DNA of 64,000 nucleotides, taken from positions 86,680 to 150,679 of the forward strand of contig CAYZWT010000002.1 in assembly GCA_964482225.1 (NCBI GenBank). The letters are read 5' to 3'. Below, in pieces: positions 2,194 through 53,342 of the stretch. Origin of the DNA: an uncultured Anaerolineales bacterium (GTDB taxonomy: Bacteria > Chloroflexota > Anaerolineae > UBA1429). The notes beneath the pieces are model-generated. The model made no database searches and had not been told where the DNA came from. It worked only from the letters and a program-made list of their open reading frames with translations. The position numbers were made by a program, and so were the translations under genes. How positions within the stretch are numbered: the first letter of the stretch is position 1; every line of letters starts with the position of its first letter.

Positions 2194-3261
2194 TCAGGGC
2201 GCATCCCAGGGGAATGTGCGCCCCAGCCACTCGGTTGGATCCACGGCCACGCCCGCCACCCGTAGCTCCCAGTGCAGGTGCGAGCCCGTCACCAGGCCGG
2301 TGGCGCCCACGGCGCCGAGCTGTTCTCCTGCCTGCACGACTTGTCCCAACTCGACCTGAATCTCATCCAGGTGAAAATAGCCACTCAACAAGGCTCCGCC
2401 ATGATCCAGGATCACGGCGCGCCCGCGCACCTGCAATTCCTCCGCCAGAACGACGACCCCGGGGGCAGGGGCGTAGACCGGCTCGCCGGTGGCGCCGCTG
2501 ATATCCAGACCGGCGTGGAACGAGGACAGGGTCGTGCCATACATACGCCGCGAGCCAAAGGGCGAGGTGATGCGCCCCTCGCGGGGCCATGCCAAGCCAC
2601 CGCTCCAGAACAGCAGGGGGCTGCGGGTCTGAAAGACCTCGGCCACGCGCTCGGCCTCTGGCCGGGCGATCTCGGGGGCCAGCAGCGCCTCGGTGCTGGG
2701 CTCAAAGGTCAGGCTCTCGCTACGGAACTCGCCCAACACGGTATACAGACGGGTCTCCAATTGCGCCGATGGCCCATCCTCGGCATAGCAGGCGGCGCGC
2801 AGGGCGTGGGCCCCCTCGCCAGCGATGGCGCTGATGCCCACCAACCCGGCGTACAAGCCCGGCGCGATCTCGACCATGTACAGTTGCTGGTCACCCAGCC
2901 AGGCCGTGGCGCTACAGGCGCGGCTGGCCCGGATGGTGAGCACGGCCGTGCGCCCCTCCACCACCACGGGCGGCTCTACCAATACCTCGATAGCCAGCGG
3001 CACAGGGGTGGCCGTCGGCGTGGGGCTGGGGCTGGGCGTCACAGTCGGCGTCGCTGTGGGGGTCGCCGTGGGTGTCGCCGTCGGGGTAAAGGTTGGCGTC
3101 AGCGTGGGCGTGGCCGTCTCGGTGGGGCGCAGCGTCGCCGTGGGCTGCCAGAAGGCCATGAGCGGACCCTCGCCTGCGCATCCGGCGCAGAGCGCAGCCG
3201 AGAGCAAGAGAACGAGGCAGGCTCGCTGGATGCGCAGACCCCCGGCGCTAGCTGCGGACAC
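2194..3261 (-). CDS. M23 family metallopeptidase, probable lipoprotein with a PT-rich linker
   Basis: Signal peptide with lipobox LCAGC. Linker (TPTA)n. C-terminal HAGLDI...GSHLHWE M23 motifs. GTG start with GGAGGA RBS. Confidence 0.75.
   Translation of the reverse strand: MSAASAGGLRIQRACLVLLLSAALCAGCAGEGPLMAFWQPTATLRPTETATPTLTPTFTPTATPTATPTATPTVTPSPSPTPTATPVPLAIEVLVEPPVVVEGRTAVLTIRASRACSATAWLGDQQLYMVEIAPGLYAGLVGISAIAGEGAHALRAACYAEDGPSAQLETRLYTVLGEFRSESLTFEPSTEALLAPEIARPEAERVAEVFQTRSPLLFWSGGLAWPREGRITSPFGSRRMYGTTLSSFHAGLDISGATGEPVYAPAPGVVVLAEELQVRGRAVILDHGGALLSGYFHLDEIQVELGQVVQAGEQLGAVGATGLVTGSHLHWELRVAGVAVDPTEWLGRTFPWDAP
3003..3123 (-). repeat. Low-complexity Pro/Thr/Ala-coding simple repeat within the M23 peptidase gene
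   Basis: Iterated ggcgtcgccgtggg-like units encode TPTATPTATPTATPTVTPSPSPT. Confidence 0.6.
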
Positions 3262-5335
3262 GGGTCTTGTCCTCCAGGCGCGCCCGCGCCTTGGCTGATC
3301 CCGAGGTCATCGGCTCGTGCAGGTCGCCCAGGCCCAGGTCGTCCATGCGTTCGCGCGTGGGCACGCCCGTCTCCACATCCCAGCCGAACAGGCGATAGTA
3401 CTCGTCCATCACGGGCCGAAAGGCCTGGCGATCCAGGGCCTGCTTTTCGCCCAGCAGGGGGTTCACCCAGTTCTCCTCATAGTCGAAGGCAGGCAGCACG
3501 CTCTCGTCCATCTGGCGGTCACGGCCCCAGTGTCGCACGCACAGGGCCCGCTCCAGGGTATAGATGCGCTCGGCGGCGCGGTCAAAGTCGGCCTCTCGCC
3601 AGTCCACGCCCGTCCCCAGTCGGAAGAGGTGGCAATCCACCGAGGGGCCCTCGACTAGACCCAGTTCGCCGGGGCCCTGCACGCGAAAGTAGCGGTCGTC
3701 GGTGGTGACGCTATAGATCAGCGGGAACACCTGATCGTCGGTGGGCAGCGAGTCCTTCATCACCGAGCGCCGGTCGTGGTAGAACGCCGGATACGCTTTG
3801 GCCTGGTAGCCGCTGTGGGGGTCCAGGGCCTCGGGCGTGCCATACACCTGCTGGCTGATGCCGCGAATCTGCTCCCAGGAGATGGGCGGCTTGTCCTTGT
3901 GCATCGGGTTCAGGGGGCTCCAGCGCATAATGTTCTGGACATAACCGTGGCTGCTGCTATAGGGGTCGCGGGTATCGGTGGACCATTGTAGCGCCGAGAC
4001 CAGCCAGTAGGGATAGACCAGGTGGTTGGCCCAGCAGGCGTGGCCGTCCCAATGGCCGCCAAAGCCCCAACCGGTGTAGCAGCGCGGAAGCAGGGCGGTG
4101 GCAAGGCCGAGCCGGTGAGCGGCGCGCACGCCCCCCTCGGCCAGCGTGTCGCCGATCCCCTCGCGATAGGCGATGGCGTGCAACAGGTGCGCCCAAAACT
4201 CAGAGTTGCGCCAGTCTATTGCCATGCCATTGATCTCGGAGATCAGGCCGGCCCGCCGGGCGCGCTCCAGCCAGGGCGCCATGCCGATGATCAGCTCCCA
4301 CTGGTTGAGCCCGTAGCGGTTGCTGAGCACGTTCAGCTCTAGGCCGCCGTAATCGCCCATCTGCCAGTCGTACAGGCCGTCGTGGCCGATGGGGCCGCCC
4401 TCGGGCATGCCGCGAAAGAGCGTGCCCACGCACACCCAATGCCCCTCCCAGGTGCGTTCGGGATAAGCGACGCCGGGCATGCCGCTATAGTAGCGGTTGC
4501 AGGGCGTGGGGCAGGCGGCGGTGCAGGCATACGGGCGCACGCGCCCGCCCCGGTTGCACGCCAGGGCCTCATTCTGGGCCTTGAGGTCGGGCACCGGGCG
4601 GTAGGCGCGGATCTCGCCCGCCACCGCCTGCAAGAGGCCATCCAGAAGCTCGGGCTCGGCCACGGGCACTTTGCCGCTGCCCTGCACCGAGATCGCCTTG
4701 AGCCTCTTTGCGCCCATGACGGCCCCAAAGCCGCCCTGGCCCGCCGTGGAGGAGGTGCCGGTGTGGATGGTGGCGATGCGGCTGAGGCGCTCGCCCGCCG
4801 GGCCGATGCACAGGGTGCGCAGCCCTTGGCCCAGGTCGCGCTCAATGGCCTCCTGGGTATCAAAGCTATCCAATCCCCACAGATCATCGGCGGGCGCGAT
4901 GGCAACCACGTCATCCCGAATGATGATCTGCACGGGCGTGTCGCTGGCGCCGGTGACCACCAGGCCGTCGTAACCGGCGCGCTTGAGCTCGGAGCCCCAG
5001 TGGTGGCCGATGTTGGCGCGGGTGTACCAGTTGTAGGGGTATGCCTGGGGGCTGAACCCACAGATGCTCGTGCGCCCCGAGTAGGGCGAGCGGGTGCCCG
5101 TCAGCGCTCCGGTGACGATGATCAGCGGGCTGGCGGGGTCAAAAGGGTCCACCGGCTCGGGACAGTCGTCCCAGGCGATGCGGGCGGCGACGCCGCGCCC
5201 CCCGATATAGTCAGGGATATAGCGCTCCAAGGGCTCGACCGAGAGGCGGGCATCGGAGAGGTCAATACGCAAAAGACGATTGGACCACCCAAAGCGCGGG
5301 GCAAAGCGAGGCATAGTGGCGGTGACGGGCTTCAT
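3248..5335 (-). CDS. Aldehyde:ferredoxin oxidoreductase family protein (tungsten/molybdopterin AOR type)
   Basis: Shares the AOR-family N-terminal motif (LLRIDLS...YIGGRGVAARI) over about 695 aa. Start reassigned to the ATG preceded by GGAGGAT. The 3' end overlaps the M23 gene by 14 nt. Confidence 0.7.
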   Translation of the reverse strand: MKPVTATMPRFAPRFGWSNRLLRIDLSDARLSVEPLERYIPDYIGGRGVAARIAWDDCPEPVDPFDPASPLIIVTGALTGTRSPYSGRTSICGFSPQAYPYNWYTRANIGHHWGSELKRAGYDGLVVTGASDTPVQIIIRDDVVAIAPADDLWGLDSFDTQEAIERDLGQGLRTLCIGPAGERLSRIATIHTGTSSTAGQGGFGAVMGAKRLKAISVQGSGKVPVAEPELLDGLLQAVAGEIRAYRPVPDLKAQNEALACNRGGRVRPYACTAACPTPCNRYYSGMPGVAYPERTWEGHWVCVGTLFRGMPEGGPIGHDGLYDWQMGDYGGLELNVLSNRYGLNQWELIIGMAPWLERARRAGLISEINGMAIDWRNSEFWAHLLHAIAYREGIGDTLAEGGVRAAHRLGLATALLPRCYTGWGFGGHWDGHACWANHLVYPYWLVSALQWSTDTRDPYSSSHGYVQNIMRWSPLNPMHKDKPPISWEQIRGISQQVYGTPEALDPHSGYQAKAYPAFYHDRRSVMKDSLPTDDQVFPLIYSVTTDDRYFRVQGPGELGLVEGPSVDCHLFRLGTGVDWREADFDRAAERIYTLERALCVRHWGRDRQMDESVLPAFDYEENWVNPLLGEKQALDRQAFRPVMDEYYRLFGWDVETGVPTRERMDDLGLGDLHEPMTSGSAKARARLEDKTRVRS

Positions 5336-5434
5336 GATCCTCCCTGTGGGTGCGCCAAGCAGATAACTGTGCGATCGCATGGCCCCGATTATGGCGGTTC
5401 TGGCCCGCAGCGTCAACTGTGCGCCCTGCCCCCC

Positions 5435-6825: not shown

Positions 6826-8256
6826 TCAGGCGCCGATCTTTTCGACGACCAATTCGACGTGGAGCTGGTCGAACACGCTGTCAGGCTCGACCTGATCCTC
6901 TCGGTAGCCCACCTGGCGGATGGTGGCCACCAAACGGAGCGACTCGGTCTGTAGCGTAACGACCAGCCCCTCCTCGGCCAGCACCAACTCGCCCTTGCGC
7001 GCCAGCTTGGCGCTCAGATCGTCGTCGGTATAGGCGTATTCGCTGGCTACCACCTTGGACATGGTGCGGGTGCCCCGCGTCTCAAAGAGCCAGAGATCAA
7101 AGGCATCCACCAGCTGCGCCCCTTCGATGCCCAGCACGTCGCTGATCACGATGCCACACTGGCCGAGGAACTCGTGTTGGGGCGATTCGATGGTAAAGGC
7201 GTGGTAAAAGTCGTCATCACCAAATCGGTAAGTGGCCTCAAAGGTGGCAAGCGGCGCCGCGTCTTGCGCAGGGGGCGCCTGCGTGGCCGTCAGAGGCTCC
7301 TCCACCGGCTCCAAGTCATTGTCGTCAAGCTCGGGCAGATCTACAACGCGCGCAACCGTCTCTGTGGCCGCGACTGAGGGCTCGCCGGTGCTCTCCTCCA
7401 CGTGCCAGGCATCCTCGGGGGCCAGGTCGGGGCGCTGGGCCAGGGGCTGCTCCTCGTCGTCCTCCCACCCGTCCGGCTCTTCCTCTTGCTCCGGCTCATC
7501 CAGGTCGAACAGGTCCTCCTCTTCGCCCTCCAGATCGAGGGGGATCTCGTCCTCCTCCTCAGCCATAAAGGCGGCGTCGTCCCAACGGGGCAGTTCGTGC
7601 TCGGTGCGCTCTGTGGCGTGGATGCCCAGGTCGCCCGGGCCGGGCACCGGATCCAGCGATAGGGCGCGGCCGGGACGGGGCCGGCGCGGCTCGGCGGCCA
7701 ACGTCTGCTCTGAGCTCGACTCGTAGGTCCCCTCGCGCTTGCGCATCTCGTTGGTTACCAGCCAGATCACCAAGGCCAGCGCCAGCGCCACAATACCCAG
7801 GGTGACCAGAATCAGCGCCCAACGCGGGCTTGGCGAAGGGGCCTCTTCCGGCTCGGCCGTCGCTATGGGCGGGGCAGCCGGTTCGATGGGCAAGGGAAAG
7901 CTCTCGCGCATGCGGCGCACACGCAGCGCGGCGGCAGGGTTGCCCGTCTGCTCCAAGTCGTCGGCGGTCGCGGCGATGAGCGTATCCACGGAAGCCCAGT
8001 CATTGTCCTCATCCACCAACTGATGGAGCCGCTCGCGCGCCTCGTTTGCGTCGCCCGTCACGCTGTACGAGTCGGCTACCATAACGACGTACGCGCGCTG
8101 ATGCTCGGCGCGCAGGTCGGAAGGGTCGGTATCCTCCCATTGGGTGGGCCAGACCCGCCATGCCAACACGAGCCCGATGGCGAGCCCCAATAAAAAGGCC
8201 CCCGCGATCCAGCCCTTGCGTGGCGTGCGGCCTTCTGCTTCCGGTGCTATGGTCAT
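6826..8256 (-). CDS. Hypothetical membrane protein with two TM helices, a long acidic (D/E-rich) disordered segment and a C-terminal domain of about 150 aa
   Basis: ATG with GAGGTG RBS. Hydrophobic segments at about residues 16-34 and 150-170. A 100-aa stretch is about 40% D/E. No family recognised. Confidence 0.55.
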   Translation of the reverse strand: MTIAPEAEGRTPRKGWIAGAFLLGLAIGLVLAWRVWPTQWEDTDPSDLRAEHQRAYVVMVADSYSVTGDANEARERLHQLVDEDNDWASVDTLIAATADDLEQTGNPAAALRVRRMRESFPLPIEPAAPPIATAEPEEAPSPSPRWALILVTLGIVALALALVIWLVTNEMRKREGTYESSSEQTLAAEPRRPRPGRALSLDPVPGPGDLGIHATERTEHELPRWDDAAFMAEEEDEIPLDLEGEEEDLFDLDEPEQEEEPDGWEDDEEQPLAQRPDLAPEDAWHVEESTGEPSVAATETVARVVDLPELDDNDLEPVEEPLTATQAPPAQDAAPLATFEATYRFGDDDFYHAFTIESPQHEFLGQCGIVISDVLGIEGAQLVDAFDLWLFETRGTRTMSKVVASEYAYTDDDLSAKLARKGELVLAEEGLVVTLQTESLRLVATIRQVGYREDQVEPDSVFDQLHVELVVEKIGA

Positions 8257-8392: not shown

Positions 8393-9466
8393 TCACCTGC
8401 CGGCAACGACCGGCTCTTTGCGGGCGCGCGTCAGGATGCGGCAGCCCGTTGCTCCGACGACGACCATATCCTCGATGCGGATGCCGCCCCAGCCGGGGAT
8501 ATAGATGCCTGGTTCCACGGTGAGCACCATGCCCGCGGGCAGCTCGCCAGGATAGACCATGCTGGCGCGGGGCTCTTCATGGATGGCCAGACCTACGCCG
8601 TGGCCCAGCCCATGCCCAAACTGTCCCTCATAGCCTGCGCCATAGATCAGATCTCGCGCAATGGCATCGGCCTGGATGCCGGTCATGCCCGCGCGGATCT
8701 GGCGCTCGGCGGCCTGTTGGGCCTCTAGCACGGTGTGCCACACGCTCAGGTAGCGTTCGTCGGCCTCGCCGATGCAAAAGGAACGCGTGATGTCAGAGCA
8801 GTAGCCATCCACCCGCGCCCCCATATCAATCACAACCGGCTCGCCCCGCCGGATGGGCCGGTCGGTTACCACGGCGTGTGACATGGCGCCGTGGGGGCCG
8901 GCCGCCACGATGGTGGTAAAAGCCAGCGCCTCGGCGCCGTGGGTGCGCATGTGCACCTCGAGCTCCCAGGCCACCTGGCGCTCGGTCATGCCGGGCCGAA
9001 TGGTATCCATGAGATGCTCGATGGCCTCATCGGCCACGCGCACGGCCTCGATGATGGCGGCCAGCTCGCCCTCGTCCTTGATGGCGCGCAGCCCCTCCAC
9101 CAGCCCCGTGGTCGGAACCAGCTCACTCGCCGGCATGGCCTTGCGCCAGCTCTCATAGGTCTCGTAGGTGAGGGCGGCGCTCTCAAAGCCCACGCGCTTC
9201 AGGCCCAAGTCGGCGATCTCGCGCGCCAGCACCTGCTCCATCCGCTGGGGCGCCTCGACCAGCTCGAAATCGGGCGCTTGCTCGCGCACCTGCTCATAGT
9301 AGCGAAAGTCGGTCGCCAGCCTGGCCACCTGGGGCGTGATGATCAGCACCCCCGCCGACCCGGAAAAGCCGCTGAGATAGCGGCGGTTCTCGGGGCTGGC
9401 GATCAGGAGGCCGTCCAGCTCGTGTTGATCAAGGGTCTCGATCAGTCGCTGCATCCGTTGGTTCAT
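8393..9466 (-). CDS. M24 family Xaa-Pro aminopeptidase / proline dipeptidase
   Basis: N-terminal creatinase/prolidase domain (HELDGLLIASPENRRYLSGF) and C-terminal metal-binding HGxGHxxG...E motifs. GAGGGAG RBS. Confidence 0.8.
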   Translation of the reverse strand: MNQRMQRLIETLDQHELDGLLIASPENRRYLSGFSGSAGVLIITPQVARLATDFRYYEQVREQAPDFELVEAPQRMEQVLAREIADLGLKRVGFESAALTYETYESWRKAMPASELVPTTGLVEGLRAIKDEGELAAIIEAVRVADEAIEHLMDTIRPGMTERQVAWELEVHMRTHGAEALAFTTIVAAGPHGAMSHAVVTDRPIRRGEPVVIDMGARVDGYCSDITRSFCIGEADERYLSVWHTVLEAQQAAERQIRAGMTGIQADAIARDLIYGAGYEGQFGHGLGHGVGLAIHEEPRASMVYPGELPAGMVLTVEPGIYIPGWGGIRIEDMVVVGATGCRILTRARKEPVVAGR

Positions 9467-9499
9467 CCGATTTGCTCCCTCAATGCGCTCCGGCGACGC

Positions 9500-9985
9500 C
9501 TATTGCGCGTCGCCGCGTTGTGCCCGGCGCGCCAGCCTGGCCTGCTCTGGCAGCCTGTCCGCCGTCTCTTCGATGATCTCGACCAACATGCGAACGCCTT
9601 CTTCCACCAGCGGCCCGCAGCGCTGGTCGCTCTCGGCATAGCGCTCGCGCAAGGGGCGGCACACAGTCCCTCCATAGGCGGCGATGAACCGCTCTCGGTA
9701 GGCGCAGACGACCTCGTATAGCCACTTGTCGTCCTCTGCATTGGTTGTGCGGCCCCAGAGCGCCCCCAATATGATGGCGGCGCCGCCGAGCACGCCGCAA
9801 AGCTCTTCGCGGCATCCACCGACCCCGCCGCCAAAGGGGCAACTGACCTGAACCAAGAGCTCAGGGATTGGATGCAGGTAGTAATCGCCGACGGCGATCA
9901 CAGTAGCCTCGGATCAATGATACTTGGCTGCGAACACGCGCCCGGCATCGGCGGCCAATTCGTCAACGGTCTTGGTGATGGTCAT
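9500..9985 (-). CDS. C_GCAxxG_C_C family putative redox protein, proposed to read through an in-frame TGA (candidate selenocysteine at + strand 9914-9916)
   Basis: The tool's ORF (9500-9901, GTG start) is preceded in the same frame by ATG (9983-9985) with a strong AAGGAG RBS, then 23 sense codons, then TGA, then 4 codons to the GTG. The TGA falls where this family has a conserved N-terminal Cys (...KYH-U-SEATV versus the family's ..N-C-AQAV..). The 9500-9901 portion alone has confidence about 0.8. Confidence 0.45.
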
Positions 9986-9995
9986 GGATCGCTCC

Positions 9996-11324
9996 TTACA
10001 GATTGATGGTGACAAGATGTCCGGCTGCGGGCGCCGGATGAGCGACAAAGGCTTGTGCGCCCGGCTGTGAGCGCGCCACCTGCGCGGCGAGTTCCTCCGC
10101 AGACGGGGCGTGTGCCAGGGCGATGGCGCAGCCGCCCCAGCCCGCGCCCGTGAGCCGCGCCCCGACCACGCCCGGGAACCGGCTCGCCAACGCGACCAGG
10201 GCGTCCAGGCGTGGGGTGCTGATCGCCAAGTCGTCGCGTGCGCTGGCGTGAGCGGCGGCCATCAGGCGCCCCAAGGTGTCCAAATCGCCGGATTGCATGG
10301 CGCGCACCGCTGCCAGCACCCGGGCATTCTCAGTGATGACATGGCGGCAACGGCGCCGCACCTGCAAGCTGTCCGCTTGCGGCGGAGCGCCCCCCTCGAT
10401 CAGTTCGTCCAAGGCAATGCCCCGTTCTCTGAGGTCGGCCAAGCTCATGCACTCGGGCAAGTCCTCGACATACTCGTTCCAGGGCATTCCTTCCATATCC
10501 CGCAACGAGCGTATGCCCGGATACCGCTCCTGCAGCATCCGCACCCCCAGCCGCACCTCGGCCACCAGCTGGTTGAACAGGGGGCCCGTGTTGCGGTGCC
10601 GCTCGCCGCTATCCATGACCACCAAGCGGTGTTCGCTGGGGAGGGGTGCATGGGCTGTATGGTAGCGCCCATGCTCCGGCCTGCAATCCACAAAGAGCGC
10701 ATGGCCCCGGCGGGAGAGCAGCGCCGCGAACTGATCCATGATGCCGCCCCGGGTGCCCGCATACCACTCGGCCTGGCTGCAGAATACCGCCAGCTCTGCC
10801 CCTGCCAGGGGCAGCTCATTGACATGCACCAGGGCCAGGGCAAAGGCCACGGTCAGAGCCGATGACGACGAGAGGCCGGCCCCCCGTGGCACGCCCCAGG
10901 GGGGACGGCCGCACACCAAGGCATCCAGGCCGCGCAGGGGGCGCCCCGTCCGGCGCGCCAATAGCTCGGCCGGTCCCTGGGCATAGTTGCCCCAATCGCC
11001 CAGCGGTTGGGGCGGGATGGCCGGCCCGATGGCAAAGGCGCGCTCGGGGTAGGGGGCCTCCATGTTGGCCAGCCGCACCTGGGCATCGGAGCGGGGCCGC
11101 GCCAAGAGCAGGATGTCGCGATCCAGGGCCACAGGCAGCACATAGCCCTGGCTATAGTCGGTGTGCTCGCCGATCAGGTTGACGCGGCCAGGCGCGCGAA
11201 ACAAAGAGACCGGCCCGGGGCCATAGTGGGCCGAGAAGGCAGCCAGCGCGTCCTGGCAGCGGCGCGCCTGGCCGTCCACTCGATGCCCCTCTGAGCCGTA
11301 TACGTCCTGGATGATCGTCCGCAT
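9996..11324 (-). CDS. galK: Galactokinase (GHMP kinase)
   Basis: PGRVNLIGEHTDY motif. GHMP motifs GLSSSSA and GAGWGG. Start set at MRTII with a GGAGAAG RBS; the tool's ORF had an 81-aa extension. Confidence 0.85.
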   Translation of the reverse strand: MRTIIQDVYGSEGHRVDGQARRCQDALAAFSAHYGPGPVSLFRAPGRVNLIGEHTDYSQGYVLPVALDRDILLLARPRSDAQVRLANMEAPYPERAFAIGPAIPPQPLGDWGNYAQGPAELLARRTGRPLRGLDALVCGRPPWGVPRGAGLSSSSALTVAFALALVHVNELPLAGAELAVFCSQAEWYAGTRGGIMDQFAALLSRRGHALFVDCRPEHGRYHTAHAPLPSEHRLVVMDSGERHRNTGPLFNQLVAEVRLGVRMLQERYPGIRSLRDMEGMPWNEYVEDLPECMSLADLRERGIALDELIEGGAPPQADSLQVRRRCRHVITENARVLAAVRAMQSGDLDTLGRLMAAAHASARDDLAISTPRLDALVALASRFPGVVGARLTGAGWGGCAIALAHAPSAEELAAQVARSQPGAQAFVAHPAPAAGHLVTINL

Positions 11325-12585: not shown

Positions 12586-13884
12586 ATGAACGCCATTCTG
12601 GTCAAAGAGCTATACAACGAGATCAACGCTCTGCCCATCCTCGATGTACACACCCATGTGCAATGGAAAACGGGCACGGCGGCCAATGTTGGAGAGCTCC
12701 TGAGCTACCACTATTACACCGAGCTGACCAACGCCGCCGACTATGAGCAAACGCCGCTACCCTTTGACGATCCCTACGAGTTGATGCGGCGGATCTACCC
12801 CAAGCTGGCCTATATCCGCAATACGGTCCAGTACGACTGGCTGATGACTATCTCCCGCGAGTTGCTTGGCATCGAGGCCGCTGCCTGGGAACTGGAGGGC
12901 AACTGGCAGACGATCTTTCGCGCCTCGGAAGAGGTGATGGGCCGACCAGATTGGGCCAGCGAGCTGATTGACCGCGCCGATATCGCCCGCGTCTTTCTTA
13001 CCAACCAATACGACGAGGATCTGGAAGGGCTCGATCCCACGTTTTACACGCCCTGCCTGCGCACCGAGCCTTTTGTGCTCTGGATGGATCGCCCGGCAGA
13101 GCGGGCTGGGCTGGAACGCTTTTTGGGCAGATCCCTGCGCACACCCGATGATCTGGATGCCGTGATCGCCAAGACGTTTGACAAGTTTATGCGGCACGGC
13201 ATGGGCTATGCCGCCATGTCCATCCCCTCGGGCTTTCAGACGCGCTTTGTGGCGCCTGAAAACGCCCTGCGCCTGCTAGACAAGGCCGTGCAGGGCAGCG
13301 CCTGGGATGCCGCCGACCGCGAGACCTGGGGCGCCTTTGCGATGAACCGCATCTGCGAGGCTTGCCGCCGCTACGCCCGTCCTTTCCACTTGATGATCGG
13401 CGTCAGCCGCGACGTGTACGCCCAAGGCGTGCCCAGCGGCCAGGATTTGTTCGATTCGGTCAACTCGATGGCCGGTTACGATTATGTGTTCAACACCTAT
13501 TGGGACGTGGATTTCCCCACGGCGGTGCTCTCGGATACCAGCGGCCTGGAGTTGACCGCGGCGGCCTGGATTCGACATAACGTGTATCCATCGGGCCACT
13601 GGTGGTACGCGAACCAACCGACCGACATCGCCCGCGAGATTCGCCGTCGCATTGACGCCGTGCCGGGCAACAAGCCCATCGGCTACTTTTCCGACGCCTA
13701 CTATCTCGAGTTCATCCTGCCCAAGTTTCGCATGTACCGCTTTGAGCTGGCCGTGGCGTTGGCCGAGCGCATGGAGCGCAGCCTGATTCACCCCAATATG
13801 GAGCCCTTTACGCTGGATGATGCCCTGTTCATGGCCGAGGACCTGTTGATCAATAACCCAACCGAGATCATGGGGATCGAATAG
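12586..13884 (+). CDS. uxaC: Glucuronate (uronate) isomerase
   Basis: KELYNEINALPILDVHTHV matches the UxaC [20 protein letters not shown] block. A later GHWWY block matches UxaC GSGWWF. GGGAGG RBS. Confidence 0.7.
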   Translation: MNAILVKELYNEINALPILDVHTHVQWKTGTAANVGELLSYHYYTELTNAADYEQTPLPFDDPYELMRRIYPKLAYIRNTVQYDWLMTISRELLGIEAAAWELEGNWQTIFRASEEVMGRPDWASELIDRADIARVFLTNQYDEDLEGLDPTFYTPCLRTEPFVLWMDRPAERAGLERFLGRSLRTPDDLDAVIAKTFDKFMRHGMGYAAMSIPSGFQTRFVAPENALRLLDKAVQGSAWDAADRETWGAFAMNRICEACRRYARPFHLMIGVSRDVYAQGVPSGQDLFDSVNSMAGYDYVFNTYWDVDFPTAVLSDTSGLELTAAAWIRHNVYPSGHWWYANQPTDIAREIRRRIDAVPGNKPIGYFSDAYYLEFILPKFRMYRFELAVALAERMERSLIHPNMEPFTLDDALFMAEDLLINNPTEIMGIE

Positions 13885-20742: not shown

Positions 20743-23700
20743 CTACACCCACCCGCACAGCGTCTCGACATACTCGGCGGAACCGTCTCGCGCCCAGGTA
20801 TCCAACTGGTCCGGCTCTTTGAGTTGCTGGCCCCGCCTATTGGGCACCGCGACATAGATCCCGCGCCATTCGGGTAGGGCCGTCATATCTCCCCAAAGCT
20901 TTTCGTACTGGGCTACCGGATAGACATCCTCCTGCCCATGCCCCCAGCGCTTTTTGACCTCTTTGAGGGTCACATAGGTTGGCACCCGCCGCGCCATGCG
21001 CCGAACAGCTTGTTCCACGGCATCTGCATCGGCGATGGAGACGCGATCCAAACCGAACAGGGCCAAAAGATCGTCAATCCGCATCCAAAAAGTGTTCGAG
21101 TTGTAATAAGTCAGGCCGAACTCGTCCTCTTCGCGGGGCAGAGCCAGCCCCTCCAGCAGGCGCAAACGCCCGTTCACGCGAGCCAGGCCGCCGCCCCGAT
21201 CCTGCACCCGGCGCGCCACCACCTCGACCGCCATAGGCGCGTCCTGCTCCAAGAGATAGCCCAGCAAGGTCGGATCGAGCCCTGCGCCCAGCGTGTCTAT
21301 ATTGTGCATCATCAGATAGCGCAGCCCCGGCCGCTCCTGCAAAAGCCGCTGCAACACGCCGCTGCGGAGCAGGTTGGGCGCCTCGTACCAATGGCCCACC
21401 GGGTTCATACACTGTAGCGGGACGTTGTCGGTATAGTCAGAGCCCTGGCCCATTCCCTCGGCCCAGGCGATCAGCGCGGCGTGCAAGCTCTCGCGCACCT
21501 TCTGGGCCTGCTCATCCAGGAGTTGCTGTGATAGCTCCTCCCAGGCAAAGCGCAGGTCGCGGGCCATGGGCACCATGCGCAGACCGACGGCGCGCCCCTG
21601 GCTGAGGTACAGCGGCCCGTTGTAGCCATAGTTACCCTGTTCGGCCAGGTGCGCCGCGATGGGTCCGTGGGTCAGATAGCTGGTGGTGATGACGTGAGGC
21701 ACCGGCGCGCCCGCCTGTTGGGCGGTGCGTTGGCTCTTGGCCAAGTGTACCTCTATGAACGAACGATGGCGCCCGCCCAGCCGCGCGAACGGGTTGAGCG
21801 CCTTGACCACGCCGGCCCCCTGGGTCCAACGGCTGCCGACGCCGCCCGCCAGGCTAACCACGGCCACCTCTCCGGCCTGCAATGCCTGGAGCCCTCGCCG
21901 GTATACTGTGCCGTCCCGCTCCTCGGGGAGCCGATGCACATCCTCCGGCGCCACATCGCGAATGTCCGTCGAGACGGGCAAACGGTTCTGGGCCAACCCG
22001 ATCAGGCCGGCGCGCAGCTCGCGGCGGATCTGCTCGTGCTGCTGGCGATCAAAGCCACTCTGCAAGAGCAGGGCCTCCAAGTCGCCCTCGCCCTCGCGGG
22101 CCGCTTCGGCTTGGGGCAGCAGTGCATCGAACAGGGCCTGCACCGTGCCGCCTAGGGCGGGGTTGGTGCGGCAGGCGGCGGCAAAGCGATCCAACTCGGC
22201 GCGCCGGCTGGCCGCGAGTTCATGGCGGCTCTGACGCAGCAGGGGTGGAACCACCAGCGTATAGTATTCCGCCGGCAGCAGAGCCTCGGAGCCCAGAGCG
22301 AGCTGCGCTACACTGCCCTGCTCGTTGATGGCAAAGTCGTACACCACCGGCTCCATGGCAAAGGGCAGAGCGTGCTGTAGGCGGCCCTTTTCCTCGGACA
22401 TGGCCCGCAGCAGGTATTCCTGGGCATGGGCCTTGGCCTCGGGCGACACGATGAACCCCATGCCCCCGCCCGACATGCCGCCGAGCATCCAAAAGCCCCA
22501 GAAGGCAGGGCCAAACTCGCCTTTGGCGCGCGCAATGAGCGCCTCGACATACAGGTTGCTGGCCCAGGGGATGATCGTCTGGATCGGCCCGTAAAAGTTG
22601 CGCGTGGTGGCATCGGCGATCTGGCGCACATTGCCCTTCTGTAGCAGACGCAGCACGTCATCCAGGATAGCGCCCGCTTGGCGGCGCGCCACCCAGGCGG
22701 CGGGCGAGCGCAGCAGGTATCGCTCGGTCACCATCTCTAGGATGGGCCCCACGTTCTGGGCCATGCCGCCGTGCACCAGCACCAGGCTATCCTGCAGGGC
22801 CTGGCGTGTCTGCTGAGAGACCTGCTCGCGATCCAGGATACGGTGCTCTGGCAGCAGCCTTCCCCGGCTGATGCCGTGCTCGGGATCGCCCAAAGCGGCC
22901 TGTACGCCATAGATCAACTTGATGCCCGGCCAGACGCCGCCGGAATCCTGCCAGCCTCCGCCGGAGCCGCCCAGCCACTCGCCCAGGATCGCCCTGGCGG
23001 CCACCTGGCGGCGCTCGTGCTCCTGCAACGTGCCACTCAGGCTGCCGATCTGGCGTGTGGCCCGCATCAAGGCGGCGATCATGGCGGCCAGCAGCGTGGT
23101 CGAGACGGCCAAGCGCGAGCCCTTGGGGATGCCGCGCACATGGCTCACCACCTCCAACCCACGCCCCGGGCCCACCAGGCGCTCCAGCAGGTCCGATAGG
23201 GGCTGCTGCGCACCCTCGATGCCGGGCGGCACGATCCCTGCCGCGATCAGCGCCGCCTTGAGCAAGCCGAGATAGTCGCGTGCCAGGTCGAATACCTCGG
23301 CAATGCTGTGGATCTCGGTCTGGGCCCCCAGGTCCACGCTGACCAGGCGGATGAGCGGCTCATCGATGACGCGCACGTGGGCGGCGACCGGCGGCCTGGG
23401 CGCGGCATCGCGGCCGCGCACGGCCAGGTCAATGGAGACGTTGATCACCCGCGCGCCCTCGGGATAGTCCATGCCCAGGAAAAAGATGTCGCTCCAGCCG
23501 CTGTGGGTCAGATCCATGCGCACGGGCGTGCTCTCGGTGAGCAGAGGATAGAGCCCCGTCGCGGGGTCGCGGCGGGCCAGCTCGGGCGCAATGCGCAAGG
23601 GATGGTCGGCGGGGTGGCCCATGCGGAACATCCAGCGGTTGCCGGAAAAAGAGAGCACGCTGTGGCGCACCTGGTCGGCCAGGGTCTGGAAGCCAAGCTG

Positions 23701-24069
23701 GTAATAAGCCAGGGCCAGGGCGCTGGCCAGCGCCTCGGAGGGACCGTCGGCGGCCTGGGCGCTCAGCAGCGCGTCAATGGCCTCGTCAAAGCGGCGCTCG
23801 AGCAGGTGGGTGTAGCCGGTGTAGGGGATGTGGCCTTCAGGGCGCAGTTCACGGCGCAGTGGCAGGTGAAAGCGATAGAGGGCATACAAGAAGGTGGTGG
23901 CGCGCACCCGCTCGAACAGGTTGGGGGCGTTGCGGCGAAAGGCGTCCAGCGCGGCGCACTCGGCCAGCAGCGCGGCCAGGTCGCGCCCGGCGCAGGCCTG
24001 CTCCAGCGAGAGGTTGCGCACATCGGGGTCAGCGGAGGTGATGATCTGCTGCAGTGGCATGGTGTGCAT
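20743..24069 (-). CDS. Bifunctional fusion: N-terminal GHMP-family sugar kinase-like domain plus C-terminal UDPGP-type (eukaryote-like) sugar-1-phosphate uridylyltransferase domain
   Basis: N-terminal half carries GHMP-like motifs (GIPKGSRLAVSTTLLAA, ~GLGSSAA; FWMLGGMSGGGMGFIV, ~GAGGGG). C-terminal half carries UDPGP family blocks (VVSLAGGVGSRW, ~LNGGLGT; MMHNIDTLGA; YYNSNTFW, ~FNTNNLW). 4-nt gap to the upstream GalU-like gene. Confidence 0.6.
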   Translation of the reverse strand: MHTMPLQQIITSADPDVRNLSLEQACAGRDLAALLAECAALDAFRRNAPNLFERVRATTFLYALYRFHLPLRRELRPEGHIPYTGYTHLLERRFDEAIDALLSAQAADGPSEALASALALAYYQLGFQTLADQVRHSVLSFSGNRWMFRMGHPADHPLRIAPELARRDPATGLYPLLTESTPVRMDLTHSGWSDIFFLGMDYPEGARVINVSIDLAVRGRDAAPRPPVAAHVRVIDEPLIRLVSVDLGAQTEIHSIAEVFDLARDYLGLLKAALIAAGIVPPGIEGAQQPLSDLLERLVGPGRGLEVVSHVRGIPKGSRLAVSTTLLAAMIAALMRATRQIGSLSGTLQEHERRQVAARAILGEWLGGSGGGWQDSGGVWPGIKLIYGVQAALGDPEHGISRGRLLPEHRILDREQVSQQTRQALQDSLVLVHGGMAQNVGPILEMVTERYLLRSPAAWVARRQAGAILDDVLRLLQKGNVRQIADATTRNFYGPIQTIIPWASNLYVEALIARAKGEFGPAFWGFWMLGGMSGGGMGFIVSPEAKAHAQEYLLRAMSEEKGRLQHALPFAMEPVVYDFAINEQGSVAQLALGSEALLPAEYYTLVVPPLLRQSRHELAASRRAELDRFAAACRTNPALGGTVQALFDALLPQAEAAREGEGDLEALLLQSGFDRQQHEQIRRELRAGLIGLAQNRLPVSTDIRDVAPEDVHRLPEERDGTVYRRGLQALQAGEVAVVSLAGGVGSRWTQGAGVVKALNPFARLGGRHRSFIEVHLAKSQRTAQQAGAPVPHVITTSYLTHGPIAAHLAEQGNYGYNGPLYLSQGRAVGLRMVPMARDLRFAWEELSQQLLDEQAQKVRESLHAALIAWAEGMGQGSDYTDNVPLQCMNPVGHWYEAPNLLRSGVLQRLLQERPGLRYLMMHNIDTLGAGLDPTLLGYLLEQDAPMAVEVVARRVQDRGGGLARVNGRLRLLEGLALPREEDEFGLTYYNSNTFWMRIDDLLALFGLDRVSIADADAVEQAVRRMARRVPTYVTLKEVKKRWGHGQEDVYPVAQYEKLWGDMTALPEWRGIYVAVPNRRGQQLKEPDQLDTWARDGSAEYVETLCGWV

Positions 24070-28243: not shown

Positions 28244-28930
28244 GTGACACAGACTGAGAATCGCTGGTTTCCCCCCTCGCCCCACCGCGAGCGGGTGGAG
28301 GAGGCCATCGCCCAGGGCGTGGCCCATATTGTCGAACGCGGGCACAATGTGGCCCCGTTACTGGTCTTTGAGGATGGCGGCGCCATCGATCTCCCCCGTG
28401 TGCGCTATCAGATGACGAGGCGCGGCATGGCGCTGGCCGCAGGCGATGGGCCCGCTGCCAAGGGGGCCACCCACTTTGGCGATGTGTGCGGCTCGGTAGA
28501 TGAGATCAAGGGGCGGGTGGCCGAGGCCGCACGCCTGGAAGAGCTGGATGCGGCCTATATCCAAGCCCTGATCGAGGATATCGGCTACATGCTCGGGCGC
28601 ATGTCCCGGCGCAGCGAGCAGTATCGCGCCTTTCTCGGCGACGTGCGCGCCATCGTGGACGAGATGCTGGCCACTCCGCCGCCTGATAGCGTGTCTGCGG
28701 AGGCGCGGACTGCGGCCTTTGCCGAGAGCCTGGCCGGAGATGGCGACCTGAGCGACCAGGGGCGCGAGACGATCTATGCTGCCGCCGAACACGTGCGCGA
28801 TCTTGCCAATGACCTGGAGGGCTATCTGGGCGCGGGCAAAGAGGCCGCCATGCGCATCGGCAAACTCTATGCCGACATCCAGGGAGGCCGCGTTTGGCAA
28901 GAGCAGCCCGGGGGAGGCGAGGCCCGCTAG
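28244..28930 (+). CDS. Hypothetical protein
   Basis: GTG start 4 nt after AGGAGG. No family recognised. A 320-bp AT-rich divergent region lies upstream. Confidence 0.5.
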   Translation: MTQTENRWFPPSPHRERVEEAIAQGVAHIVERGHNVAPLLVFEDGGAIDLPRVRYQMTRRGMALAAGDGPAAKGATHFGDVCGSVDEIKGRVAEAARLEELDAAYIQALIEDIGYMLGRMSRRSEQYRAFLGDVRAIVDEMLATPPPDSVSAEARTAAFAESLAGDGDLSDQGRETIYAAAEHVRDLANDLEGYLGAGKEAAMRIGKLYADIQGGRVWQEQPGGGEAR

Positions 28931-28958: not shown

Positions 28959-30053
28959 CTAGCTCCCCGGCGCGCCCGTGATCTCGGCCACGCGCCGGAA
29001 GAACGCCTGCTTGAAGGGCGTGTTGATTGTCCAGTTCACCGGCGGCGTCTGAAAGCCGGTCAGCTCGTCCCAGGGGGCGTCGTCGCGATAGCGGGGCCGC
29101 GAGGTATAGTCCTCCCACGGGTCGTTGCCCTGGCCGCGCCAACCCTGGTCGTAATAGCCCCAGGAGACGCCCTTGCGCCAAGAGACTTCGAGATTGGGCG
29201 TGGCGGGCGAGTCCTCGTTGATGACGATGGGCTTGGGCGCGATGCGATAGGCGGGCATGCCCTGCACCACATCTATGGCGGACTCTAGCTCTGCCGGGCG
29301 CAGGCCATTGCCGTGTAGCAGGACATAATCGTCGGCGCGCACCAACGCGGCGGGGGGCATGCCGCGGCCGGTGGCCACCTCAGCGCCGCCGCCGCTGGTG
29401 GAGTAGAGCAACTCGGGGTAGTGGGTGCGCAGTGCGGCGATCATCTCGGGCTGCCGCTCGGGGCGAAAGATGTCATAAGGCGTGTGATCCACCACGACAT
29501 CTATCTCGTTGGCGATCTCGATCAGGATATTGCGGCGGCCCGTGCCCATCAGGAACTCACAGGTCTCGTGGGCGGCGCGCCAGATGGCCGCTTCGTCCTC
29601 CATGCGACGCAGCATCATCCAGTAGAACATGCCCACGATGACGACCATGCCCAGCTCGTCGGCGCGGGCCAGAATACGCTCCAACCGGGCGGCATAGGCG
29701 GGTTTGAGAGCGCCCTGGGGTGTGTAGCCGTTGTTGTCATAGCCGTGATAGATCTCGGGGACGTACAGGGGTCCGCCGCCCTGCAGATTGACGGTGAAGG
29801 CCAGGATGCCGTGGGCCGCCCAGGTGGGCAGCGCGTCGCAGAACTCGGCGACGTTGCGCTCGGGATCCCACTCGCCTGTGTCGGGATAGGCCCAGTGGCG
29901 GCGCGTCTCGGGGTTGGCATCATCATAGAGGGCCTGCACGGCGCGCACGTTAAAGAGCATCCCTTCGATGCGGCGCCCCTCGAACACTCGCCCCGCATAG
30001 GTCGGACGGCCGTTGATGTGAAAATCGGCGCCGTGGATCGTGATCTCGGTCAT
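28959..30053 (-). CDS. Putative glycoside hydrolase, TIM-barrel cellulase-like (GH5-like)
   Basis: IANEID and INEDSP blocks could correspond to the acid/base and nucleophile Glu of GH5-like enzymes. Family assignment is uncertain. Confidence 0.35.
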   Translation of the reverse strand: MTEITIHGADFHINGRPTYAGRVFEGRRIEGMLFNVRAVQALYDDANPETRRHWAYPDTGEWDPERNVAEFCDALPTWAAHGILAFTVNLQGGGPLYVPEIYHGYDNNGYTPQGALKPAYAARLERILARADELGMVVIVGMFYWMMLRRMEDEAAIWRAAHETCEFLMGTGRRNILIEIANEIDVVVDHTPYDIFRPERQPEMIAALRTHYPELLYSTSGGGAEVATGRGMPPAALVRADDYVLLHGNGLRPAELESAIDVVQGMPAYRIAPKPIVINEDSPATPNLEVSWRKGVSWGYYDQGWRGQGNDPWEDYTSRPRYRDDAPWDELTGFQTPPVNWTINTPFKQAFFRRVAEITGAPGS

Positions 30054-52776: not shown

Positions 52777-53193
52777 CTAGAAGAGCTGGCCAAACTCGTC
52801 TACGCGCCCGATCCATTCCAGGCCGGTGGGGGGATGCTCCAAGTGTACGTGGTAGACGCGCGGCGACTGGTTGTCTGCCCTGGCGGTAACGCAGATGCGC
52901 CAGCTCTCGGCCAGGTAGCAGTAGCCGCCAGCCCCGTCCAGGGCGTCGCCTGCCAGCGGCTCGACCGTCCAGCGGATGCCCGGCGCGGGCGCCGCACTGC
53001 CGTGGGTGGCGCTCAAGTGCGCCAGCACGGCATCCAGCGTTACGATGTATCCGGCGCCCGAGGGCAGCTCTGGCTGGGGAGGTAGCGTGGGCGCGGGTTC
53101 TGCCTGCGGCTCGGCAAACACCGGCAGGGCGGCGGCCAGCGGCAGTAGACACACGAGCACCAAGGCAACGAGCAGATAGCGTTCGCCGTTCAT
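52777..53193 (-). CDS. Hypothetical small secreted protein
   Basis: Signal peptide MNGERYLLVALVLVCLLPLAAALPVFA. AAGGAGG RBS. No family recognised. Confidence 0.5.
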   Translation of the reverse strand: MNGERYLLVALVLVCLLPLAAALPVFAEPQAEPAPTLPPQPELPSGAGYIVTLDAVLAHLSATHGSAAPAPGIRWTVEPLAGDALDGAGGYCYLAESWRICVTARADNQSPRVYHVHLEHPPTGLEWIGRVDEFGQLF

Positions 53194-53342
53194 GGCCACC
53201 TCCTTGCAGGATATCACTGGACATCGGCGCGTACTTGACTGACGTCCATGATAACACCCAGGTTCCCCTGGGGACACGCTCATCTGGCCAGTTTCCTCCT
53301 GGCCAGATGGGTAGGGAGGCGATGAGCGCTGTTCGCCGGGGA

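Follow-up and report, generated by a model that had tools for sequence, protein, structure and literature searches.

A probable selenocysteine codon and its SECIS-like hairpin in a C_GCAxxG_C_C-family gene of an uncultured Anaerolineales bacterium

The 'C-GCAxxG-C-C family protein, pfam09719' is listed among the prokaryotic selenoprotein families with WP_012158890.1 as its representative and an empty entry in the motif column (Zhang et al. 2022, PMC9312934). The family name is absent from the text of the GOS (Global Ocean Sampling) paper cited for the selenocysteine (Sec) form, and the papers that we found on C_GCAxxG_C_C mention the family without characterising its function. Within the Chloroflexi, Sec-containing formate dehydrogenases have been reported in Anaerolineae-related members (PMC5736913) and an early survey recorded three selenoproteins (PMC1794560), so the Sec trait exists in this phylum. 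Here, we describe a gene of this family on the minus strand of a 64,000-nt stretch of DNA from an uncultured Anaerolineales bacterium (contig CAYZWT010000002.1; this whole stretch is referred to as the window, and coordinates are positions within it). The public gene call starts at a GTG (9901) located shortly after an in-frame TGA (9916–9914), which the original prediction had proposed to be a Sec codon. We estimate a probability of roughly 85% that this UGA is a genuine Sec codon accompanied by its Sec insertion sequence (SECIS), and that it lies in a single 161-residue protein.

The ATG (9985), the TGA, the GTG and the 161-codon joined translation were all located on the minus strand where they had been predicted. 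The TGA and the GTG share one frame and are separated by 12 nt (TCC GAG GCT ACT), the minus-strand context being CTG TAA GGAG CGATCC ATG ACC ATC ... AAG TAT CAT TGA TCC GAG GCT ACT, followed after ACT by GTG ATC GCC GTC GGC GAT TAC TAC. In a mechanical list of open reading frames (ORFs), the upstream segment appears as a 44-aa ORF ending at 9914, the last 23 codons of which are opened by the ATG. The ribosome-binding site claimed for this ATG is present (AAGGAG, 9997–9992, 6 nt before it), and similar purine-rich boxes also precede the upstream ATG in three relatives (L007, L009 and L012). A genome-wide reassignment of TGA was considered and rejected: TGA is the commonest ordinary stop in the window, ending 20 of 43 genes, and the standard genetic code therefore applies, with the UGA at 9916–9914 as a local exception.

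Profile searches of the joined protein, in which codon 24 was written as Cys, established its membership of the family. Against Pfam PF09719 (C_GCAxxG_C_C), residues 22–137 matched the complete model (1–118 of 118; 72.6 bits, cut-off 27), while the truncated ORF covered only model positions 19–118 (61.1 bits). The NCBIfam model TIGR01909, 'C-GCAxxG-C-C family (seleno)protein', likewise scored the joined protein (44.5 bits) above the truncated ORF (35.1 bits). The joined protein also matched the NCBIfam DVU_1555 family model and, weakly, NF045501, 'HUGP/GUXX-star fusion selenoprotein' (residues 1–83 on model 1–81, E = 3.7e-4). Among 5.8 billion proteins searched, 36 relatives were retrieved; those of full length (156–161 aa) read F-A-A-K-Y-H-C-S-E-A-I-V-I-A-V-G, with the Cys aligned to the TGA of the window; the closest of these, P0002, is a Cys form of 73% identity. 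The remaining short relatives (108–139 aa) start MIAVGD.. and resemble the truncated ORF of the window. In full-length alignments, the TGA column also corresponds to the invariant Cys of canonical Oscillospiraceae members (GYN-C-AQA). A diverse alignment (A4) contained four invariant Cys (C23, C62, C108 and C122 in P0002 numbering), the window equivalents of which are U24, C63, C109 and C123. C63 lies in C-G-V-L-G-G, where Val replaces the Ala of the C-G-A-x-x-G signature. The proposal that the TGA occupies the first conserved redox Cys of the family was thus borne out, both by the alignment to PF09719, which starts at model position 1 only when the two segments are joined, and by the invariance of this column as Cys.

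We then compared DNA of the short forms and their relatives, taken from GTDB species genomes and JGI metagenomes. An in-frame TGA was found at this codon in 16 distinct homologues, and TGC or TGT in 13. Fourteen of the TGA forms are Chloroflexota orthologues (the window, L007 (Anaerolineales UBA1429), L009, L011, L012, L021, L022, L023, L036, L037, L039, L040, L041 and L042), in which a start codon lies 20–26 codons before the TGA and the N-terminal segment is recognisably homologous. Two much more distant short forms (L050 and L051), obtained from a search of 1.84 billion representative proteins, also carry the TGA. The stop codon at the site is TGA in 16/16 cases and never TAA or TAG, the downstream domain is intact in all TGA forms, and all 16 keep the upstream frame together with the TGA, rather than starting at the GTG with no conserved frame before it. 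Between TGA forms with N-termini of equal length, the ratio of non-synonymous to synonymous polymorphism (pN/pS) over the 19 codons before the TGA was 0.18–0.35, and by this measure the codons upstream of the TGA are under purifying selection. Most Sec and Cys forms share a common neighbourhood (galactokinase, the gene itself, an M24 Xaa-Pro peptidase and a 476-aa protein without Pfam domains), and are therefore positional orthologues.

The original prediction had also described a short hairpin with a 6-bp stem and a GTCG loop on the 3' side of the UGA. A hairpin is present there, although its dimensions differ: the inverted repeat reads ATCGCC-GTC-GGCGAT, the full stem has 9 bp and the loop is GTC (nominally 3 nt, or 5 nt if the closing C-G pair opens). 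The stem begins 12 nt past the UGA, the helix spans +16 to +36 with the loop at +25 to +27, and, with a stem of this length, the GTG 'start' forms its first three bases. When folded from the window sequence by itself, the minimum free energy (MFE) was −15.6 kcal/mol (z = −2.2), and 4 of 200 shuffled sequences folded equally well. For the 14 orthologues, RNAalifold applied to 51 nt counted from the UGA onward gave one helix, pairing columns 16–24 with 28–36. Standard pairs filled 99.2% of the cells in these 14 sequences and 97.9% in all 16, with the hairpin present in 16/16 TGA forms, whereas pairing fell to 24–67% when partners were shifted by 1–3 columns. Compensatory changes were seen at two pairs. 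At pair 19–33, 12 sequences have A-U and three have C-G, a switch that requires Ile-to-Leu and Asp-to-Glu replacements jointly, and pair 16–36 is G-C, G-U or, once, A-U; pairs 18–34 and 21–31 show wobble changes. In the loop, G25 and U26 are invariant and the third base is variable.

Codon usage within the stem differs between the Sec and Cys forms. In the Sec forms, the entropies of the stem codons for Val, Ile, Ala, Gly and Asp are 0, 0.41, 0, 0 and 0 bit, compared with 1.30 bit for the loop codon and an average of 1.19 bit for conserved residues elsewhere in the gene. By contrast, the Val, Ala and Gly codons at the stem positions of the Cys forms have entropies of 0.99, 1.89 and 1.44 bit, values that do not differ from those in the rest of the gene (1.10 bit). 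This shows RNA-level selection on the stem, with synonymous variation suppressed only in the Sec forms. Similarly, the stem Asp is encoded by GAT in 12/12 of the Sec forms that carry it, against a GAC:GAT ratio of 54:24 elsewhere in these genes. The hairpin cannot form in 11 of the 13 Cys forms, and the MFE over 48 nt is −6 to −16 kcal/mol in those that lack it versus −16 to −27 kcal/mol. By its position and conservation, the hairpin has the expected look of a bacterial SECIS.

The two exceptional Cys forms, L020 (3069–3110 of JAXGNH010000019.1) and L032 (FWPV01014780.1), carry a complete hairpin, GUGAUCGCC-GUG/GUA-GGCGAUCAC, within about 40 nt after the TGC. Both nest inside Sec clades in a neighbour-joining tree, drawn without support values, and they look like recent Sec-to-Cys reversions that retain a 'fossil' SECIS. 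The simplest reading of the whole set would be one origin of the Sec/SECIS state in the group, after which Sec reverted to Cys several times.

The structure that AlphaFold2 predicts for the Cys orthologue P0002 is all-helical and confident (predicted local distance difference test, pLDDT, 94.8; predicted template modelling score, pTM, 0.91), with a mean pLDDT of 86 in the first 10-residue block and 97–98 in the next blocks. The segment discarded by the gene callers forms helix 1 (residues 5–18) and the turn leading toward the Sec position. Helices 2 and 6 begin with Cys23, which is the Sec position, and with Cys108, respectively, and Cys62 and Cys122 lie one residue ahead of helices 4 and 7. 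As the other three family Cys stand at or next to helix starts, the Sec is likely to be part of a redox or metal site.

Taken together, these data suggest the following course of expression. Translation would begin at ATG 9985, behind the AAGGAG box. When a ribosome reached the UGA, the hairpin 12 nt downstream would be positioned to recruit SelB-GTP-Sec-tRNA(Sec); this element, with its 9-bp stem and apical G-U-N loop, would itself be read as the coding sequence for V-I-A-V-G-D-Y. Sec would then take the place of the first of the four Cys that are invariant in the family, a position that the model puts at the N-terminus of helix 2. This scheme predicts that the hairpin binds SelB, that selA, selB, selC and selD are present in the genome, and that selenium is incorporated into the protein.

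Of the alternatives, the one that survives best, although we regard it as improbable, is that the UGA is read through without Sec, for example by near-cognate insertion of Cys, Trp or Gly stimulated by the hairpin, to give a selenium-free full-length protein. Downstream hairpins can stimulate read-through in general, and no Sec machinery was found in the DNA searched. However, the UGA coincides exactly with a functionally critical Cys that is invariant, the classic signature of a Sec/Cys pair, and the spacing and invariant G-U loop of the hairpin are as expected of a SECIS that binds SelB. The use of Sec in related Chloroflexi, and the selenoproteins already annotated in this family (NCBIfam; PMC9312934), also favour Sec over a near-cognate residue.

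A second alternative, to which we assign a very low probability, treats the UGA as a true stop that ends a 23-codon leader begun at ATG 9985, after which a 133-aa product would be re-initiated at GTG 9901 by translational coupling. This is the gene model chosen by gene callers everywhere, it is compatible with the failure to see Sec machinery in the DNA searched, and a GAGG box about 5–6 nt before the GTG could serve as a ribosome-binding site, a role that we consider equally improbable. That GAGG is the coding sequence of the conserved Ser-Glu-Ala, and is found in the Cys forms too. The supposed leader is homologous to the N-terminus of full-length Cys forms, is under purifying selection, and constitutes helix 1 of the confident model, while the truncated product would be without one of the four invariant Cys. 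A true stop would also have to account for TGA being used in 16/16 cases, with no TAA or TAG. Moreover, a stable 9-bp stem encloses the GTG, an unfavourable location for initiation, and in some homologues with the same hairpin the codon at its position is TTG or ATG.

The weakest alternative, that a single base change turned the TGC or TGT of the common Cys forms into TGA, either in a dying gene or through a sequencing or assembly error, is effectively refuted by the comparative data: the TGA-bearing sequence is identical in at least 15 independently assembled contigs of the organism (ENA, Logan and JGI samples), which rules out an assembly error, the TGA recurs in 15 further divergent homologues whose frames are intact and whose sequence is conserved on both sides, and no other stops or frameshifts are present.

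Several observations weigh against the assignment of the UGA as a Sec codon. Neither selA, selB, selD nor tRNA-Sec was found in the 64-kb window or the approximately 10 kb past each of its ends. In the same vein, E. coli SelA, SelB and SelD gave no tblastn match in all 361 kb of the window and related loci; ARAGORN found no tRNA-Sec in the window and 31 loci, where it identified a single tRNA-Leu and, in the window, no tRNA gene; and no sel gene appeared in the Pfam results for the window genes, including those for a further 30 genes, or among the genes listed for the 10 kb past either end of the window. As the genome measures several Mb and about 84 kb of it were covered, this absence says little either way. 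No Rfam SECIS match was obtained from the whole window at the gathering score or from positions 9700–10100 at E <= 10, and these searches returned no other credible RNA family. Rfam coverage of bacterial SECIS elements is limited, so the missing match is weak evidence. The stem codons are mostly preferred ones in a GC-rich genome, and the exact codons have p ~0.07 given the peptide and the codon usage of the region; with this value, and a z of only −2.2 for the window sequence taken alone, it is the comparison between homologues on which the case for the hairpin rests. The 16 TGA sequences are phylogenetically related, so that the counts overstate the number of independent events. The joined protein also narrowly misses the curated TIGR01909 cut-off (44.5 versus 47.4 bits); this subfamily is divergent, and with a score below the cut-off the NCBI annotation pipeline PGAP would not name the protein through this model. 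The doubt that remains about the Sec codon concerns the Sec machinery and the selenoprotein itself, both of which are predictions here. The alignment to the family model and the relatives came out as had been predicted, and the Sec interpretation is supported.

The possible function of the protein was approached through its fold, which matches the iron-centre domain of split-Soret cytochrome c (PDB 1H21). 1H21 was the top match, a weak one (E = 0.38), of a broad family profile searched against the PDB, and the alignment places the ICGALYG and C-x15-C of the cytochrome on family Cys 2, 3 and 4 without reaching Cys 1. When the PDB was searched by sequence with P0002, a canonical member or a narrow profile as the query, only chance matches were obtained (e.g. 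TALE repeats, VapB30), and Foldseek against the PDB gave nothing significant. The non-haem iron centre of split-Soret cytochrome c is reportedly a [2Fe-2S] cluster ligated by four Cys of the N-terminal domain. From the structural match, we think that the protein most likely provides a site for electron transfer or redox chemistry, formed by its four Cys/Sec residues. If a cluster is held by the four family Cys, Sec24 would be one of its ligands, as a selenolate; otherwise, it would be a redox-active residue beside three thiols. Either way, Sec24 would belong to the active site.

More specifically, Sec might replace one of four Cys that hold a non-haem iron-sulfur centre, as in split-Soret cytochrome c. 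We put this forward tentatively, as a proposal that is rather unlikely to hold in full, and the same low grade covers the ligand assignment, repeated switching between selenium and sulfur, and the existence of hundreds of unrecognised members jointly. If true, this would be an iron-sulfur protein that naturally uses a selenolate as a ligand and has switched repeatedly between selenium and sulfur in evolution, and one of hundreds of such members in Chloroflexota and other anaerobes, which would have gone unrecognised because about half of the subfamily entries are truncated at the UGA codon.

The extent of this truncation was assessed in the set of 278 subfamily proteins retrieved (P0001–P0278). 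In 116/278, the start site is at most a few residues away from the x-A-V-G-x motif found after the UGA position, such short entries beginning with M or V followed by IAVGD or LAVGE.... A further 112/278 are full length, with Cys at the site in 109 and Gly in 3. Since an in-frame TGA was present in each of the eight distinct short forms whose DNA was inspected (8/8), about half of the subfamily's database entries are probably mis-split selenoprotein genes. None of the approximately 280 subfamily proteins retrieved carries a selenoprotein annotation, and no annotated Sec form of the subfamily was found among the best 120 matches of a profile search of the 5.8-billion protein set. The public entries for the gene and its TGA-type relatives (e.g. 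HHX44922.1) are fragments of 110–139 aa that lack helix 1 and the key residue, be it catalytic or a ligand. With 116/278 entries starting just after the UGA position, a large mis-split set could be repaired by a simple rule: an in-frame TGA after [YH]-H, then S-E-A and a GCC-GUN-GGC hairpin. Sec/Cys pairs have already been recorded for this family, and no new principle is involved; their extent in the Chloroflexota-centred subfamily seems to have gone unrecorded so far. The locus adds a well-defined selenoprotein and SECIS to the Anaerolineales, together with a natural series of Sec/Cys switches that includes Cys forms still bearing the hairpin, and the link to the split-Soret iron centre offers a testable idea about the role of the uncharacterised C_GCAxxG_C_C family.

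Other variation within the subfamily was also observed. The three full-length members with Gly at the site (P0055 and two others; e.g. NYH-G-SES) indicate that the first Cys is not required in all members. Domain fusions occur among P0158, P0179, P0099, P0146, P0070 and P0081, and comprise an S-adenosylmethionine (SAM) methyltransferase joined to C_GCAxxG_C_C and a Cys-rich C-terminal tail (..CPFGATC), and GNAT joined to the domain. Further architectures include the domain with a C-terminal extension of about 300 aa, and long N-terminal coiled extensions.

Table 1 Features of the candidate selenoprotein gene and its neighbours in the window.
Feature	Position	Strand	Remarks
Full-length selenoprotein coding sequence (proposed)	9500..9985	-	161 codons: Met1..His23, Sec24, Ser25..Gln161; stop TAG 9502-9500
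Shine-Dalgarno-like AAGGAG	9992..9997	-	6 nt 5' of ATG 9985; overlaps TAA stop of galK
N-terminal 23 codons MTITKTVDELAADAGRVFAAKYH	9917..9985	-	ATG 9985-9983; dropped from public gene call
In-frame UGA, candidate Sec codon, residue 24	9914..9916	-	First of four invariant family Cys positions
SECIS-like hairpin	9881..9901	-	5' arm 9901-9893 GUGAUCGCC, loop 9892-9890 GUC, 3' arm 9889-9881 GGCGAUUAC
Truncated 133-aa ORF (P0001), public-database call	9500..9901	-	GTG start inside hairpin
Galactokinase (GHMP kinase), upstream neighbour	9996..11324	-	Conserved synteny
M24 Xaa-Pro peptidase/creatinase-like gene, downstream neighbour	8393..9466	-	Synteny kept in Sec and Cys forms

Neither a promoter-like nor a terminator-like site was found between galK and the gene, a short interval, and the two are probably in one operon. 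The four-gene order described above is kept across Anaerolineae-like metagenome-assembled genomes down to about 60% protein identity (window 8393–11324, L007–L043), and a functional link between these genes is not evident. In the 476-aa protein, which lies beside the M24 peptidase in many relatives, the middle part is acidic and rich in Pro/Glu and the C-terminal 200 aa are conserved.

Elsewhere in the window, part of the candidate ORFs split by an in-frame TGA were inspected, and among these no second selenoprotein was seen: they proved to be either neighbouring genes that share a frame or antisense frames in GC-rich genes. An O6-methylguanine-DNA methyltransferase gene (60333–60911, minus strand) has an ordinary Cys active site, IPCHRAV (PCHR); this family has Sec forms in some bacteria. 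The tungsten-type aldehyde:ferredoxin oxidoreductase that the original prediction had cited is indeed present about 4 kb away (AFOR_N/AFOR_C, 3248–5416, minus strand), and electron transfer flavoprotein (ETF)/ferredoxin genes lie just past the window end (L049). These genes are consistent with an anaerobe and are not evidence on selenium use; as an argument for selenium, the oxidoreductase is merely circumstantial. Five sizeable ORFs with a coding-like GC content at third codon positions (GC3) have no Pfam match at E <= 1e-5 (6826–8256 (−), 12586–13884 (+), 28244–28930 (+), 28959–30053 (−) and 52777–53283 (−)), the one for the 476-aa protein being among them. The gene at 20743–24069 (−) encodes a 1108-aa protein, the sole Pfam match of which is a partial UDP-glucose pyrophosphorylase near the C-terminus (residues 886–1002), and is followed by genes for a nucleotidyl transferase and a PKMT-type methyltransferase.

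Comparison with described systems places the gene as follows. The N-terminal domain of split-Soret cytochrome c of Desulfovibrio desulfuricans ATCC 27774 (PDB 1H21) has a sequence identity of 16%, and the cytochrome differs in being periplasmic and in having an extra di-haem C-terminal part. The name of NF045501 implies a His-Sec motif, like His23-Sec24 here, but the score of 20 bits is far from the cut-off of 325 bits, and the second domain with its C-terminal GUXX motif is missing. With the PF09719/TIGR01909 family, the protein shares the full-length domain and the signature of four Cys, the first of which is the UGA position here; it differs in the Chloroflexota subfamily motif [YH]-H-[U/C]-S-E-A ... 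C-G-[VL]-x-x-G. Relative to the bacterial SECIS elements of E. coli fdhF and Moorella thermoacetica fdhA, the hairpin described here has a perfect 9-bp stem, a 3-nt loop and no bulged U, and its binding of SelB is a prediction. As in those elements, the stem-loop lies within the coding sequence, directly 3' of the UGA, and the spacer to the stem is about 11 nt in E. coli fdhF and 12 nt in the window. The apical G and U, which are invariant here, are the bases recognised by SelB in solved complexes (Moorella SelB-SECIS).

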